DNA from: Escherichia coli
Lineage (GTDB): Bacteria; Pseudomonadota; Gammaproteobacteria; Enterobacterales; Enterobacteriaceae
Length of the DNA: 64,000 nucleotides
Reading direction: 5' to 3' (one strand)
NCBI RefSeq assembly: GCF_003334335.1
Contig: NZ_QOWQ01000005.1
The position numbers and the translations under genes were made by a program. The notes under the pieces are model-generated. The model ran no database searches. It worked only from the letters and a program-made list of their open reading frames with translations, and was not told the DNA's origin. Shown one piece after another: positions 27,443-59,331 of the stretch. Every line of letters starts with the position of its first letter. Positions within the stretch are counted from its first letter, which is position 1.

Positions 27443-28461
27443 TGCAGCAGGTTTTTTTCCAGGAGACTGAGTTTCTCAATTCGGTTATTGATTATAATCA
27501 TAAAATAGAAGCAGAAAATCTTTGTCTGGATATTGCTTATGGGACTGACAAAAATTTTCTTTTTGGATGCGGAATATCGATTGCTTCAATATTAAAATAT
27601 AATGAAGGAAATCAATTATGCTTTCATATTTTTACTGATTATTTCGGTGATGACGATCGCAAATATTTTGATGCCCTGGCCAGGCAATATAAAACAAGAA
27701 TTAAGATATATTTAATTAATGGTGATCGACTCCGTTCATTACCCTGCACCAAGAACTGGACTCATGCTATTTATTTTCGTTTTGTTATCGCCGATTACTT
27801 TTTTAATAAAGCACCCAAAGTTCTTTATCTGGATGCAGATATTATTTGTCAGGGAACTATAGAACCACTTATCAATTACACGTTTTCTGAACATACAGTC
27901 GCAATGGTTGTTACAGAAGGACAAAAAGACTGGTGGGCAAAACGTGCTCATTCGTTAGGTGTTGCTGGGATTGCTAATGGTTACTTTAACTCCGGTTTTT
28001 TACTGATTAATACTAATCAATGGACGAATGAGCGGGTTTCTGCACGGGCCATTGCAATGTTAAGTGATCCAGAGATAGTCAAAAAAATAACACATCCTGA
28101 TCAGGATGTATTAAATATGTTATTGGCAGACAAACTTGTTTATGCTGATATTAAATATAACACTCAGTTTAGTTTAAATTATCAACTAAAAGAAAGTTTT
28201 AAAAACCCAGTAACTAACGATACAGTTTTTATTCATTATATTGGTCCAACTAAACCCTGGCATGACTGGGCCTGGGATTATCCAATATCACAAGCTTTTA
28301 TGGCGGCAAAAAATGCTTCACCATGGAAGGATACTGCGTTATTGAAACCGGTTAATAGTAATCAATTAAGATACAGTGCTAAACATATGTTGAAAAAAAA
28401 GCAATATATCAAAGGATTTGGCAACTATCTTTTGTATTTTATAAAAAAGCTAAAGCATTAA
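27442..28461 (+). CDS. waaI: LPS core alpha-1,3-glycosyltransferase (GT8)
   Basis: 339-aa ORF; GT8 motifs YLDADIIC, FNSGFLLIN, DQDVLNMLL; 1-nt overlap with the waaB stop. Confidence 0.75.
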   Translation: MQQVFFQETEFLNSVIDYNHKIEAENLCLDIAYGTDKNFLFGCGISIASILKYNEGNQLCFHIFTDYFGDDDRKYFDALARQYKTRIKIYLINGDRLRSLPCTKNWTHAIYFRFVIADYFFNKAPKVLYLDADIICQGTIEPLINYTFSEHTVAMVVTEGQKDWWAKRAHSLGVAGIANGYFNSGFLLINTNQWTNERVSARAIAMLSDPEIVKKITHPDQDVLNMLLADKLVYADIKYNTQFSLNYQLKESFKNPVTNDTVFIHYIGPTKPWHDWAWDYPISQAFMAAKNASPWKDTALLKPVNSNQLRYSAKHMLKKKQYIKGFGNYLLYFIKKLKH

Positions 28462-53193: not shown

Positions 53194-53403
53194 ATGGGCA
53201 AATTAGGTGAAAACGTTCCGCTTCTTATCGATAAAGCCGTAGATTTCATGGCATCAAGCCAGGCGTTCCGGGAGTATCTGAAAAAACTTCCTCCCCGTAA
53301 CGCGATTCCGTCCGGAATACCCGATGAAAGCGTGCCGTTATATCTACAACGTCTGGAGTATTATCGTCGGCTTTATCGGCCGAAGCAGGTAGAGGGGCAG
53401 TAA
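53194..53403 (+). CDS. yibT: Small protein of unknown function
   Basis: 69-aa [34 protein letters not shown]; symbol from recalled synteny between mtlR and yibL; hairpin plus T-run downstream. Confidence 0.55.
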
Positions 53404-53414
53404 GCAGACGTTGC

Positions 53415-54002
53415 TTACTTTTGAAAGGCTTTTTTTAAGCTGATTTTGGAAATCAGCTCAGTCAGTGAAAGGACCATTGTTGATCGCACAGCCTGTTGAT
53501 AGCGCTGAATTTGCATTGCATACAAACTGGAGTCTGCTGGTTCAAACTGTGGCGGCGGTGGTAACGCCGCCACGCAGTGCAGTTCACCAAAGGGTCCAAG
53601 GATTTCGTCGTCGGTAAAGGCGTACTCGTTGCCGTCGTGATTTAGCTCTTCACGCAATGCCATCAGCAGTTCCGCATCTTCGTATTCCTGGCGGTTAATG
53701 ACGCCCAACCCGTAAATGAGTTTTAAACGCACAGAAAGATCGCCCAGCGGACCATCGCCGTCGAGTAACGGTTCTACAGCATACTTCACCGCGTAATCGT
53801 CTTTGCGGAATACCTGAAGCACCAGAAGATTTACCGCCTCGGTCAGGAGCTCGACGGCGGTGATCAGAAAGCTTCGCACGGTTTTGCCAGCATTCAGACG
53901 CTCAAGCACACGGTTTTCAAAGGCCTGGGTTTGTTCCATTGTTGCCTGCATATCTGACAATCTGTTATTCGGGCGCAGGGTGTCCTGCGCCTGGTCCACC
54001 AT
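53415..54002 (-). CDS. mtlR: Mannitol operon repressor
   Basis: 195-aa ORF immediately downstream of mtlD. Confidence 0.85.
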   Translation of the reverse strand: MVDQAQDTLRPNNRLSDMQATMEQTQAFENRVLERLNAGKTVRSFLITAVELLTEAVNLLVLQVFRKDDYAVKYAVEPLLDGDGPLGDLSVRLKLIYGLGVINRQEYEDAELLMALREELNHDGNEYAFTDDEILGPFGELHCVAALPPPPQFEPADSSLYAMQIQRYQQAVRSTMVLSLTELISKISLKKAFQK

Positions 54003-55150
54003 TATTGCATTGCTTTATAAGCGGTTACCGCCTCGGATACAACCTCGCTGTTGGCATCAAGACCGGAAATCTGTGCCAGCGCCGCCTGCGGACCTTTGTC
54101 AGCGATCAGTGCTGCCAGTTCCTGAGCCTGCGGATCATCTTCACTGCGGAAGTGCATTGCAGCGGCAATACCTTCAATCAGGTTTTTATGTGGCAGACCA
54201 TATTCCAGCGTACCGAGCAGTGGCTTGATCAGACGGTCGCCAGCACTCAGTTTACGCAGTGGCTGACGGCCTACGCGCTCTACATCATCTTTCAGATACG
54301 GGTTCTCAAAACGGCCGAGAATTTTCTGGATGTACGCCGCATGCTTGTCAGCGTCAAAGCCGTAGCGCTTGATCAATACTGCACCACTTTCTTCCATCGC
54401 ACCTTTTACCACCGCGCGGATTTTCTCGTCGAGAATCGCGTCACGAATGGTCTGATGACCGGCCAGTTTTCCGAGGTACGCGGTTATAGCATGACCCGTG
54501 TTCAGGGTGAAGAGTTTACGTTCGACAAATGCCATCAGGTTGTCGGTTAACTCCATGCCTGGGATGTTCGGCAGTGCGCCTTTGAACTGCGTTTTATCGA
54601 CAATCCATTCGCTGAAGGTTTCTACCGTCACTTCCAGCGGATCGTTAGTTGCCGAAGCCGAAGGCGGTACGATGCGGTCAACGGCGGAATCGACAAAGCC
54701 AACGTGTTCTTCTACCCACGCTTTGGCGTCTTCCGGCAGGGCGTTCATCACATGGCCTTTCAGCTGCGTGGTACCGCGTACCATGTTTTCACAGGCGATG
54801 ATGTTCAGCGGGGATTCATTACCTTGTTCTTTACGTTTCACCAGCCCTTTGGCGATTGCCGGAGCAATACGTTCCAGCACAACCGGGCCAACGGCGGTAG
54901 TGACTAAATCAACCTGAGCAATCAGATCAACGACATCATCACCAATGCTGCTGACAGCATTGACGCCGGAAACGGTATCTACCTGCTCGGTTTCACCAAC
55001 CACATGTACCTGATAGCTATGACGGGCATTCAGGGCATCAAGTACCACCTGATTGACATCGGCAAACGTCAGTTGGATACCCGCGTCTGCCAGCAGTTTA
55101 CCGATAAAGCCACGACCGATATTACCTGCGCCAAAATGTAATGCTTTCAT
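54002..55150 (-). CDS. mtlD: Mannitol-1-phosphate 5-dehydrogenase
   Basis: ORF track 54002..55468 is over-extended through the REP cluster; true N-terminus [17 protein letters not shown] (382 aa). Confidence 0.9.
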
Positions 55151-55159
55151 AGTATTAAC

Positions 55160-55378
55160 CTTCATCAATGTTTTTACCCGAGAGGGCTGGGGTGAGGCTT
55201 TTCCCTCACCCAAACCCTCTCCGTGAGGAGAGGGGCAGCGCCGGATGCGGCGTAAGCGCCTTATCCGGCCTACAAGAACGTGCAAATTCAACAAATTGTG
55301 ATGCATCCTGTAGGCCTGATAAGCGTAGCGCATCAGGCAATTAACCCCACCTTCTCCATGTGGAGAGGGTGGGATTGG
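55160..55378. repeat. REP / GC-rich palindromic repeat cluster in the mtlA-mtlD intergenic region
   Basis: Two canonical REP units (gccggatgcggcg...ccggcctac and gcctgataagcgtagcgcatcaggc) flanked by ccctctcc / ggagaggg palindromes. Confidence 0.7.
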
Positions 55379-55379
55379 A

Positions 55380-57293
55380 TTACTTACGACCTGCCAGCAG
55401 TTCCAGCACTTCATCCACGCTGGTGGTGTGTGCCAGACGCTCGATGACGGACTCATCATCCAGTGCATTGGTCAGGCTGGTGATAACCTGAATGTGCTCG
55501 TTGTTACGGGCAGCAATACCAATCACCAGACGGGCAATGTCATCTTCTTCTTCACCGAAGCGCACGCCTTCCGGGTACTGGCAGAACACGACGCCCGTTT
55601 TCAGTACGCGATCTTTCGCTTCAACCGTACCGTGTGGCACCGCGATAGACTCACCCAGATAAGTCGGGGTCAGTTTTTCACGATCCAGCATCGCCTGAAC
55701 GTATTCCGGCTCAACGTAACCGCCTTTCACCAGCTGCTCGCCAGCAAAACGAATCGCTTCTTCTTTGGTTGCCGCTTTGCGACCGAGGAAGATGTTCTCC
55801 GCGCCTAGCTTGAACAGGTTAGCACTGGAATCGTCAAAGCTGTCTTTCAGGCTGTCTTTTACTTTCTCTTCGTTTGCCGTGTGGCGTTGGGCAGCAACCA
55901 GACGTTCGGTCAGGCTGGTGTACAGGCCGCTGTCGAGGAAGTTGGTCAGCGAAATATGCTGTGCCTGCGGAACCTGGCGCATAGCGCGTTCGGTCAGGTC
56001 ACGGTGAGTGATGACGAGGTCCACATCTGGCGGCAGGTTGTTGATCGCGCTGTTAGTAACAGAAATCTGCGACAGACCTGCATCCTGAATTTTCTTACGC
56101 AGAACGCCTGCGCCCATCGCACTGGAACCCATACCGGCGTCACAGGCAACGATGATTTTACGTACGTGGCTCAGGTCGTTAGTCACATCGCCAGCAGACA
56201 GCGGAGATGCGCCTTTAGACTCAGCTTTCATGTCCTGCATACGACGAGTTGCTGCTTCAATATCATCTTCTTCTTTCACTTTGCTGGTTTTCAGCAAAAT
56301 AGCAGAGACAACGAAGGAGACAGCCATCGCCGCACACACACCCGCGATGTTAGCGAAGTAAGCACCTTTTGGTGTCATCGCCAGTACAGCAAGGATAGAA
56401 CCCGGAGATGCCGGAGAAACCAGACCACCGCCCAGGATAGTCAGCGTGAACACGCCAGTCATACCGCCGAGGATGACTGCGAGGATCAGACGCGGATTCA
56501 TCAGCACATACGGGAAGTAGATTTCGTGGATACCCCCCAGGAAGTGGATGATTGCCGCACCGCCCGCAGACTGTTTAGCGCTACCACGACCAAAGAACAT
56601 GTACGCCAGCAGCACGCCCATACCTGGACCTGGGTTAGCTTCAATCAGGAAGAAGATTGATTTACCCAGTTCATGGGACTGCTGAATACCCAGCGGCGAG
56701 AAGATACCGTGGTTAATGGCGTTGTTGAGGAACAGGATTTTCGCCGGTTCAACAAAGATAGACGCCAGCGGCAGCATGTCATGGACAACCATGAAGTTAA
56801 CGCCCGCAGCCAGCATTTTGGACAGGGCTTCAACAATCGGGCCAATGCCGAGGAATGCCAGAATAGCGAGGATCATCCCGATGATGCCTGCGGAGAAGTT
56901 ATTCACCAGCATCTCAAAACCGGATTTGATCTTACCGTCTACCCAGCGGTCGAAGTGCTTAATGCACCAGCCGCCCAGCGGACCTGCAATCATAGAACCG
57001 AGGAACATCGGCATGTCTGCGCCGACGATAACGCCCATGGTGGTGATGGCACCGACTACGCCGCCACGTTCGCCGCCTACCAGCTTACCACCGGTATAAC
57101 CGATCAGCAGCGGCAGGAGATAAGTGATCATCGGCCCGACCAGCTTCGCCAGCGTCTCGTTCGGTAACCACCCTGTTGGAATAAATAACGCGGTGATGAT
57201 ACCCCACGCGATAAACGCGCCGATATTTGGCATCACCATGTTGCTGAGGAAACGACCAAAGCTTTGCACTTTGATCTTAATATCGGATGACAT
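55380..57293 (-). CDS. mtlA: PTS mannitol-specific EIICBA component
   Basis: 637-aa [34 protein letters not shown]. Confidence 0.93.
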
Positions 57294-57436
57294 AAAAACA
57301 CCCCTTCTTATGTTTGCTGTCGCGCAGGCTGGAAGCCCGAGGTTTTTTGTTAATGTGGCGGCAGAGGTAGCCGGACCTTGTAGATACTGCGAAATCTGGC
57401 ACTGAATCGGTTAACTGTCCAGTCGACGGCCTTTTG

Positions 57437-57452
57437 TGTGATATCAATCACA
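57437..57452. promoter_or_regulatory. CRP site TGTGA-tatcaa-TCACA (mtlA promoter region)
   Basis: Perfect symmetric CRP core motif. Confidence 0.65.
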
Positions 57453-57553
57453 TAAATATAGGGGGTAGAGAGGTAATTGACGTGACGTTCATCACAAAAC
57501 GCTTGTGTAAAAAAGCAACAAGGCGGCGATTTTCGCTAAAAATGGCATTTAAA

Positions 57554-57569
57554 TGTGAGTAGTGTCACA
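57554..57569. promoter_or_regulatory. CRP site TGTGA-gtagtg-TCACA (mtlA promoter region)
   Basis: Perfect symmetric CRP core motif. Confidence 0.65.
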
Positions 57570-57597
57570 TTTTTGTTTTGATGGTTTGTTGAATCTT

Positions 57598-57613
57598 TGT
57601 GATCTGAATCACA
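57598..57613. promoter_or_regulatory. CRP site TGTGA-tctgaa-TCACA (mtlA promoter region)
   Basis: Perfect symmetric CRP core motif. Confidence 0.65.
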
Positions 57614-57829
57614 AGATATTTTCTTACGGCGTTCACCTGATGTGATCTACAGCATGTTATGCCTTCGTCATACAATCGTTATGTAACTAAGCAACTCATC
57701 ACCTCTAAAAATTATTCTTTGGTGTTATGGCGAGAATCGCGAACCCGGATTATTGTCAAAATATCAGCCTGACTCCCTTCTGGCTGCCAGCCCAAAAACA
57801 ACACTGATAAACGTGAATCCGAGGCAGAT

Positions 57830-58192
57830 ATGTTTCTAAACTATTTCGCGTTGGGAGTGCTGATCTTCGTCTTTCTGGTGATTTTTTATGGAATCATCGC
57901 GATACATGACATCCCTTATCTGATTGCCAAAAAGCGCAACCATCCCCATGCCGACGCTATTCATACGGCGGGCTGGGTGAGCCTGTTTACTCTGCATGTT
58001 ATCTGGCCGTTTCTGTGGATCTGGGCGACGCTCTATCAACCGGAGCGTGGCTGGGGTATGCAGTCACATGTTGCGTCGCAGGAGAAAGCGACTGACCCGG
58101 AAATCGCCGCACTTTCTGACCGAATTTCCCGGCTGGAGCATCAACTCGCCGCCGAGAAAAAGACTGACTATTCCACGTTCCCGGAGATCTAA
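57830..58192 (+). CDS. yibI: Small inner-membrane protein (DUF3302)
   Basis: 120-aa ORF with two predicted TM helices; stop is 2 nt before the yibH start. Confidence 0.75.
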
Positions 58193-58194
58193 TT

Positions 58195-59331
58195 ATGGAT
58201 CTATTGATTGTTTTAACTTACGTGGCGCTGGCGTGGGCGGTCTTTAAAATCTTCCGCATTCCGGTAAATCAGTGGACGCTGGCGACGGCGGCGCTGGGAG
58301 GCGTGTTTCTGGTGAGTGGTTTGATTTTGTTGATGAACTACAACCACCCTTACACTTTTACCGCGCAAAAGGCAGTGATAGCGATCCCTATCACGCCACA
58401 GGTGACGGGAATTGTTACTGAAGTCACTGACAAGAATAATCAGCTTATTCAAAAGGGCGAGGTGCTTTTTAAGCTCGACCCGGTTCGTTACCAGGCGCGA
58501 GTTGACAGACTTCAGGCTGACCTGATGACGGCGACGCATAATATAAAGACGCTGCGTGCGCAGCTCACTGAAGCGCAGGCCAACACCACCCAGGTTTCAG
58601 CGGAGCGCGACCGTCTGTTTAAAAATTATCAACGTTACTTGAAAGGCAGCCAGGCGGCGGTGAATCCGTTCTCGGAACGTGACATCGACGATGCGCGGCA
58701 AAATTTCCTCGCGCAGGATGCGCTGGTGAAAGGCTCGGTGGCGGAGCAGGCGCAGATCCAGAGCCAGCTCGACAGTATGGTTAACGGCGAGCAATCGCAG
58801 ATTGTGAGCTTAAGAGCGCAACTTACTGAAGCAAAATATAACCTTGAGCAGACTGTCATTCGCGCGCCGAGCAATGGCTACGTTACTCAGGTACTGATCC
58901 GCCCAGGTACATACGCAGCTGCCTTGCCGCTGCGTCCGGTGATGGTCTTCATCCCCGAGCAAAAACGGCAAATTGTCGCCCAATTTCGGCAAAACTCGCT
59001 GTTACGTCTGAAACCCGGCGATGATGCGGAAGTGGTGTTTAACGCGCTACCTGGGCAGGTGTTTCACGGCAAACTGACTAGTATTTTACCTGTCGTGCCA
59101 GGCGGTTCTTATCAGGCGCAGGGGGTATTGCAATCATTAACGGTCGTGCCCGGCACGGACGGTGTGCTGGGAACCATTGAACTGGACCCTAACGATGATA
59201 TCGATGCCTTACCCGACGGCATCTACGCCCAGGTGGCGGTTTACTCCGACCATTTCAGCCATGTTTCGGTGATGCGGAAAGTGCTGCTAAGAATGACCAG
59301 CTGGATGCATTATCTTTATTTGGATCATTGA
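58195..59331 (+). CDS. yibH: HlyD-family periplasmic adaptor protein
   Basis: 378-aa ORF with N-terminal TM anchor, coiled-coil and beta-barrel regions typical of membrane-fusion proteins. Confidence 0.8.

Follow-up and report, generated by a model that had tools for sequence, protein, structure and literature searches.

The CRP palindromes between mtlA and yibI belong to the five-site mtlADR operator, and yibIH is probably transcribed from its own promoter outside the mtl module

The region considered here, positions 57294-57829 of a 64,000-base stretch of Escherichia coli DNA (the whole of which is called the window below), is the 536-bp spacer bounded exactly by mtlA on the minus strand and yibI on the plus strand. 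The spacer is 100% identical to that of K-12-type and O157:H7 genomes and is found in 5,403 of 5,426 complete E. coli genomes. The gene on its left, the promoter of that gene and the CRP sites of the spacer, with positions relative to the mtlA start and scores from the matrix described below, are as follows.

55380-57293, minus strand: mtlA, mannitol PTS transporter, subunits IICBA (637-aa ORF; RefSeq annotation in matching genomes)
57386-57421, minus strand: mtlA core promoter, with -35 TGGACA (57421 to 57416), a 17-bp spacer, -10 CAGATT (57398 to 57393) and start at ~57386
57437-57452: CRP5, perfect palindrome TGTGATATCAATCACA, centre 57444.5 (-58.5), 18.0 bits
57481-57496: CRP4, CGTGACGTTCATCACA, one mismatch, centre 57488.5 (-102.5), 16.3 bits
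57554-57569: CRP3, perfect palindrome TGTGAGTAGTGTCACA, centre 57561.5 (-175.5), 14.7 bits
57598-57613: CRP2, perfect palindrome TGTGATCTGAATCACA, centre 57605.5 (-219.5), 19.7 bits, the best of the window
57641-57656: CRP1, weak site TGTGATCTACAGCATG, centre 57648.5 (-262.5), 10.1 bits

A preliminary description of this DNA had reported three perfect CRP palindromes in the spacer with further half-sites nearby, and both statements hold. The exact sequence TGTGA-N6-TCACA occurs in the window only at 57437-57452, 57554-57569 and 57598-57613, compared with a mean of 0.05 occurrences in dinucleotide-preserving shuffles, none of 100 of which contained three; beside these lie the single-mismatch site at 57481 and the weak site at 57641, and half-sites (TGTGA or TCACA) in the spacer number eight in all, where 0.86 would be expected from their window-wide density. 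The same description had called for a matrix scan, in which poor scores would speak against the sites. The matrix used for this purpose was symmetrised and derived from 103 ChIP-seq sites of ETEC H10407 (PMC4287617), with the mtl sites excluded, and its training sites have a median score of 12.7 bits. The scores obtained are high: the four best in the whole window are those at 57598 (19.7 bits), 57437 (18.0), 57481 (16.3) and 57554 (14.7), and the site at 57641 (10.1 bits) ranks 13th. Judged by palindrome or near match together with matrix score, the spacer thus contains three perfect sites, one site with a single mismatch and a fifth at 10.1 bits. Elsewhere in the window the matrix also finds a match of 12.9 bits at 27646-27661 (GGTGATGACGATCGCA) and, within yibH, moderate matches at 58380-58395 (AGCGATCCCTATCACG, 11.9 bits) and 58413-58428 (TGTTACTGAAGTCACT, 9.5 bits); all of these may be due to chance.

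The perfect palindromes correspond to CRP5, CRP3 and CRP2 in the long-known five-site array of mtlADR, which CRP4 and CRP1 complete. The mtlA start was positioned at ~57386 on the minus strand from CRP5 at -58.5, and from CRP5 to CRP1 the centre-to-centre spacings are 44, 73, 44 and 43 bp. Lee et al. (NAR 2026; PMC13421365) place the mtl operator sites at -58.5 (CRP5), -102.5, -175.5, -219.5 and -262.5 (CRP1), and in RegulonDB, as listed in the supplement to Shimada et al. 2011, identical sequences stand at identical positions as activator sites of mtlADR only, the entry at -102.5 being the CRP4 sequence in reverse complement. An mtlA start that 454 sequencing placed 92 bases before the ATG, having GACTGGACA as its -35 box (Mendoza-Vargas et al. 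2009), agrees with ~57386, and among the sigma-70-type candidates that the spacer has on its minus strand the core promoter listed above scores highest (7.65). In locus, sequences, centres and spacings the array is the same as the mtlADR operator of E. coli (Ramseier and Saier 1995, as cited; RegulonDB; PMC13421365), with no differences on the mtl side, so that the agreement with a CRP-rich mannitol promoter that had been proposed is confirmed site by site. Compared with the known operator, the preliminary description gave only the three perfect sites, whereas CRP4, despite its one mismatch, is as strong as they are. The mtl side of the observation is therefore already known, a rediscovery of a CRP cluster that is among the best documented in E. 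coli.

The mechanism by which these sites act at mtl has recently become known in detail. Transcription of mtl depends on CRP (PMC13421365), and when CRP2, CRP4 or CRP5 is replaced on the chromosome, mtlD expression and growth on mannitol are almost lost; mutation of CRP3 slightly lowers mtl expression, and mutation of CRP1, which has 7 of 10 consensus bases and is unoccupied when CRP2 and CRP3 are present, has no effect (PMC13421365). The repressor MtlR, which lacks a DNA-binding domain, acts by docking on two CRP dimers 43-46 bp apart, the docking pairs being CRP4/5, CRP2/3 and CRP1/2, and is released when dephosphorylated MtlA sequesters it at the membrane during mannitol transport (PMC13421365). 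Following that work, activation of the weak mtlA promoter needs cAMP-CRP at CRP5, CRP4 and CRP2, with a contribution from CRP3, and pairs of CRP dimers 43-46 bp apart form the platform for MtlR, which is pulled off to the membrane during mannitol transport. In the present sequence the three pairs have spacings of 44 bp (CRP4/5), 44 bp (CRP2/3) and 43 bp (CRP1/2), all within the 43-46-bp range; it is this spacing within the MtlR-CRP-DNA assembly that was tested here, and the docking itself is taken from the paper. A likeness to CytR-CRP at deoP2, where a repressor likewise contacts tandem DNA-bound CRP dimers, is drawn in PMC13421365; however, CytR binds DNA itself, whereas MtlR, lacking a DNA-binding domain, reads only the spacing between CRP dimers. 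Binding of cAMP-CRP to the mtl sites has been published from EMSA (PMC13421365), genomic SELEX and ChIP-seq (PMC4287617): the yibI/mtlA spacer contributed 38 clones to genomic SELEX, the second most abundant (Shimada et al. 2011), and CRP ChIP-seq in ETEC H10407 shows two peaks in it (Haycocks et al., PMC4287617). PhyloScan ranked the spacer first. A 1-bp insertion in the mtlA/yibI spacer was fixed in one lineage over 1,200 days of stationary-phase evolution (PMC7858067); a 1-bp change between CRP sites could alter spacing-dependent docking of MtlR.

Conservation of the array was followed in a one-genome-per-species scan with YibI, which returned 80 loci; in 46 of them yibIH has mtlA as its divergent upstream neighbour. 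Together with the window, these 46 loci make up a comparison set of 47 sequences, and the genera they represent are Escherichia, Citrobacter, Yokenella, Klebsiella, Raoultella, Enterobacter, Lelliottia, Leclercia and Huaxiibacter. The positional layout of CRP5, CRP4, CRP3 and CRP2 (44/73/44) is kept in 47/47, with CRP3 falling below the scoring threshold at one locus (L042): CRP5, CRP4 and CRP2 score at least 12 bits in 47/47, and at a threshold of at least 10 bits CRP3 is found in 46/47 and CRP1 in 15/47. Toward mtlA the array is held in register, CRP5 being at a constant distance from the -35 and -10 boxes in 47/47 within a conserved promoter block, and the distance from the array to the mtlA ATG ranges over 145-153 bp across the 47 sequences. 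Perfect palindromes number one to four per locus and are confined to mtlA-containing loci, and which of the sites are perfect varies by species. The idea that the palindromes are a functionless chance cluster is already refuted and retains virtually no probability, given three exact matches against 0.05 expected, the four best matrix scores in 64 kb, site positions that are conserved across genera, and binding and mutagenesis that are already published (PMC13421365, PMC4287617).

Some further features of the array were seen in these alignments. The yibI-side flank of CRP2 (57609-57622, TCACAAnAnATTTT) is conserved in all genera beyond the CRP core, as is a GTTTGTT upstream of CRP2 (~57584-57590); a flank preference of CRP, DNA bending or another factor such as Fis are possible reasons. 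In E. coli GPEC1054, a chicken isolate (L082), an IS21-family element (istA, istB) lies between CRP2 and CRP1, at the equivalent of ~57629, where it parts yibI from the strong CRP sites, CRP5 to CRP2 staying on the mtlA side.

On the other side of the spacer lie yibI and yibH, with the following features in and upstream of them.

57727-57758, plus strand: conserved yibI-proximal block, ATGGCGAGAA-N13-TTATTGTCA (consensus ATGGCGAAAA-N13-TTAtGtTCA, with invariant internal spacing)
57727-57763, plus strand: predicted yibI core promoter, with -35 TGGCGA (57728-57733), -10 TATTGT (57751-57756) and predicted start at ~57763
57765-57786, plus strand: predicted stem-loop in the yibI leader, in which CAGCC (57765-57769) pairs with GGCTG (57782-57786) (RNAalifold consensus)
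57830-58192, plus strand: yibI, DUF3302 membrane protein (ORF; RefSeq name)
58195-59331, plus strand: yibH, HlyD-family protein (ORF; RefSeq name)

Since the gene upstream is divergent, a promoter for yibI-yibH must lie within 57294-57829, and to this extent the earlier argument that the region also drives yibIH is sound. A sigma-70 consensus scan in the yibI direction of the spacer gave nothing relevant, and a sigma-70 matrix scan in the same direction gave no candidate above background (for scores of at least 5, 8.5 hits per kb per strand). Near yibI, strong conservation is confined to the block at 57727-57758, which occurs in all mtlA-yibIH genera and in Kluyvera; we read it as a weak sigma-70 core promoter of yibI, a prediction for which its matrix score of 5.07 is at background level. 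The supplementary data to Kim et al. 2012, to Latif et al. 2018 (ChIP-exo) and to Mendoza-Vargas et al. 2009, the last of which lists mtlA only, give no mapped yibI start. In keeping with the promoter reading, the leader stem-loop follows just downstream of the predicted start; its five pairs are 91-100% paired in 34 sequences, with compensatory changes of C-G to U-A in two sequences and of A-U to G-C in one. Escherichia, Citrobacter, Klebsiella, Raoultella and Kluyvera all conserve the structure; located at the predicted 5' end of the mRNA, it may be a stabilising 5' hairpin. Rfam scans of this spacer and of the longer Enterobacter-type spacer returned no match.

Other readings of the yibI-proximal sequence were considered and set aside. 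The pair TCTACA-19-TACAAT (57646-57676) is listed in the mtlA column of a constitutive-promoter table (Shimada 2014, PMC3946193) and is present only on the strand that points to yibI; as a yibI promoter it was rejected, being lost even in E. albertii and lying outside the small promoter-trap insert described below. The pair TTCACC-17-TGTTAT (57632-57660), from which CRP2 would lie at -61.5, was rejected as well, as it has no A at position 2 of the -10 box, a background score of 4.39 and poor conservation. For sigma-E, sigma-54, sigma-32 and sigma-28, the spacings and key bases of the block, judged by eye, are unfit. A 26-codon ORF (MARIANPDYCQNISLTPFWLPAQKQH, 57727-57807) starts at the conserved ATGG of the block; its substitutions show no third-codon-position bias and its frame stops after 11 codons in Kluyvera and after 8 in Lelliottia, so it is probably not a gene.

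Relative to the predicted yibI start at ~57763 the five CRP sites are centred at -114.5, -157.5, -201.5, -274.5 and -318.5. If that start is right, all of them fall outside the classical class I and class II positions, taken here as a centre near -41.5, or near -61.5, -71.5, -82.5 or -92.5. Unlike the mtlA side, where the distance to the promoter boxes is constant in 47/47, the interval between CRP2 and the yibI-proximal block differs among genera, the values seen being 100.5 and all those from 118.5 to 126.5; helical phasing between a CRP site and the yibI core promoter block is therefore not conserved. Measured from the yibI ATG, the nearest detected CRP site lies at a distance of 177 to 353 bp, part of which range is accounted for by an insertion of ~125 bp in the Enterobacter, Lelliottia, Leclercia and Raoultella group. 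This insertion, which is AT-rich, conserved and also present in Huaxiibacter, lies between the yibI promoter block and yibI (L046, 3815-3945; also L022, L024, L026, L029, L031, L044 and L053) and contains TTGACA and TATAAT motifs 22 bp apart.

A natural separation of yibIH from the array is provided by Kluyvera, in six loci of which (L025, L030, L034, L035, L037 and L039) the yibIH orthologues do not adjoin mtlA. That these are orthologues is indicated by YibH, which is 87-90% identical to the E. coli protein, compared with 75-78% at paralogous loci. At L030, yibL and lldP are found directly upstream of yibI; in E. coli both genes come after mtlR. When L030, L034 and L025 are aligned to the window (blastn), homology breaks off within the yibL-mtlR spacer, at a locus-dependent point between 53279 and 53291, and picks up again at 57708 (L030), 57746 (L034) or 57812 (L025), which defines one further feature of the window:

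53280-57707: segment absent at the Kluyvera yibL-yibI locus, comprising mtlR, mtlD, mtlA and the CRP operator with all five of its sites

Set against Kluyvera, this segment forms a single insertion/deletion block, with ~200 bp of unrelated sequence in its place. By this comparison of sequences, 53280-57707 behaves as one mtl module relative to Kluyvera, with the yibI block just outside it. Kluyvera keeps the yibI block, the leader hairpin and the ribosome-binding region, and no CRP site of at least 10 bits is present within 700 bp upstream of its yibI; the block is thus retained without the array, and therefore the array goes with mtlADR and not with yibIH. The comparison covers the Kluyvera genomes at the yibIH locus. 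The paralogous DUF3302/HlyD pairs, whose YibH-like proteins are 75-78% identical, share a conserved block of another kind, GTATATATAAACCCATATATCGTTATATAAATAAG, located upstream of the yibI-like gene by ~90-130 bp (L047, L049, L050, L052, L059, L060, L063, L067, L072-L074, L077 and L079). Their nearest 500 bp contain no CRP site of at least 10 bits, and two loci have an 11.7-bit match 556-618 bp upstream; the upstream sequences suggest that these pairs are under a separate regulator.

Taken together these comparisons bear on the second part of the earlier proposal, that yibIH, driven from the same region, may be under catabolite control. The promoter in this spacer stands; the step from there to CRP control is supported by neither the geometry, nor the phasing, nor the Kluyvera comparison. 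We favour, with moderate confidence, a yibIH promoter at ~57727-57763 that would lie outside the mtl module and would not be stereospecifically coupled to the CRP array, and so would not be a classical class I or class II CRP-dependent promoter. An independent promoter of this kind is consistent with an array registered to mtlA, a variable distance to the yibI block, the arrangement in Kluyvera, and the recovery of a promoter-trap insert that carries no CRP site. This last observation comes from UPEC UTI89, in which an insert from 4027590 to 4027356 was recovered as inducible, from a single colony and with its own fold induction unreported; with the yibI gene starting at 4027446, it corresponds to -144 to +90 of yibI (~57686 onward in the window), and it includes the conserved yibI block and no CRP site. 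Weighing against an independent promoter are its start, which is a predicted one, its background sigma-70 score, the single colony behind the insert, a ChIP-seq peak over CRP2 and CRP1 that was assigned to yibI, and the co-induction of yibH with mtlA.

That CRP2 and CRP1, and perhaps CRP3, also activate a promoter directed at yibI, placing yibIH in the CRP regulon under bidirectional catabolite control, is a reasonable idea and one that has been made before: Shimada et al. 2011 list mtlA and yibI as both downstream of a CRP-binding sequence, with the partner of mtlA a predicted target, and note that divergent promoters are often both regulated, the spacer being their second most abundant SELEX clone. 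The ChIP-seq peak containing TGTGATCTGAATCACA (CRP2) and TGTGATCTACAGCATG (CRP1) is the one assigned to yibI (PMC4287617), and a larger UTI89 insert (-329 to +151), which contains CRP3 to CRP1, was recovered in three colonies and is induced 5.6-fold in urine; the smaller, CRP-less insert was nevertheless still recovered. On entry into stationary phase in glucose minimal medium yibH and mtlA rise together (log2 +3.78 and +2.84), a transition that the authors of those data tie to relief of catabolite repression, but the co-induction could equally come from RpoS. TTCACC-17-TGTTAT would set CRP2 at exactly -61.5 from a yibI-directed start, but it lacks the key A at position 2 of its -10 box, scores at background (4.39) and is unconserved; the loss of TCTACA-19-TACAAT already in E. 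albertii counts against bidirectional control as well, as do an array that is unphased with the conserved yibI block, a Kluyvera yibIH with no CRP site, and the assignment of the sites to mtlADR only in the RegulonDB list (in Shimada et al. 2011). For CRP acting from far upstream there is the example of the pap operon, at -215 (cited in PMC13421365). Our search found no published yibI expression with and without CRP, and what bears on membership of yibIH in the CRP regulon is correlative (stationary phase, urine). The malE/malK and fucA/fucP regions, which are likewise divergent spacers with several CRP sites and of a kind that dominates CRP SELEX and ChIP lists, offer an instructive comparison: there both promoters respond to CRP, whereas at mtlA/yibI the mtlA side alone is documented and the yibI side has no CRP site at an activating distance from its conserved block. 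On balance we consider bidirectional catabolite control unlikely, and prefer a yibIH promoter that would be independent of the array.

A different kind of connection would arise if the regulatory complex itself reached yibI. The divergent mtlA-yibIH arrangement is kept in about ten genera, and MtlR docks on CRP1/2 and CRP2/3, the sites nearest yibI (PMC13421365); a CRP-MtlR complex on either pair might dampen or insulate yibI, for example by DNA bending or looping, in which case a response of yibIH to mannitol would come through MtlR and not through CRP activation. These sites, however, lie upstream of the predicted yibI start by over 100 bp, the mtl operon is MtlR's sole known target (PMC13421365), and the variable distance to the yibI block argues against stereospecific coupling, so that damping of this sort is a very remote prospect. 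Scarcely better placed is the broader proposal that yibIH is a second output of the CRP-MtlR complex, with CRP1/2/3 dimers, with or without MtlR, modulating yibI from more than 100 bp upstream, which we hold to be improbable. If it were true, MtlR would for the first time have a target beyond the mtl operon, namely yibIH, and a conserved DUF3302/HlyD-family membrane pair would be co-regulated with mannitol uptake.

We thus return to the reading preferred above, to which, as a whole, we assign a probability of roughly 80%: the palindromes are the CRP array of mtlADR, and yibIH would have its own promoter outside the mtl module. Few regions of the E. coli genome bind CRP as strongly as the mtl operator, which since 2026 has also been the model for a repressor that reads the spacing of CRP dimers and not the DNA sequence. 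For the gene pair on its other side, the comparative evidence suggests that yibIH mostly does not share mtl control.
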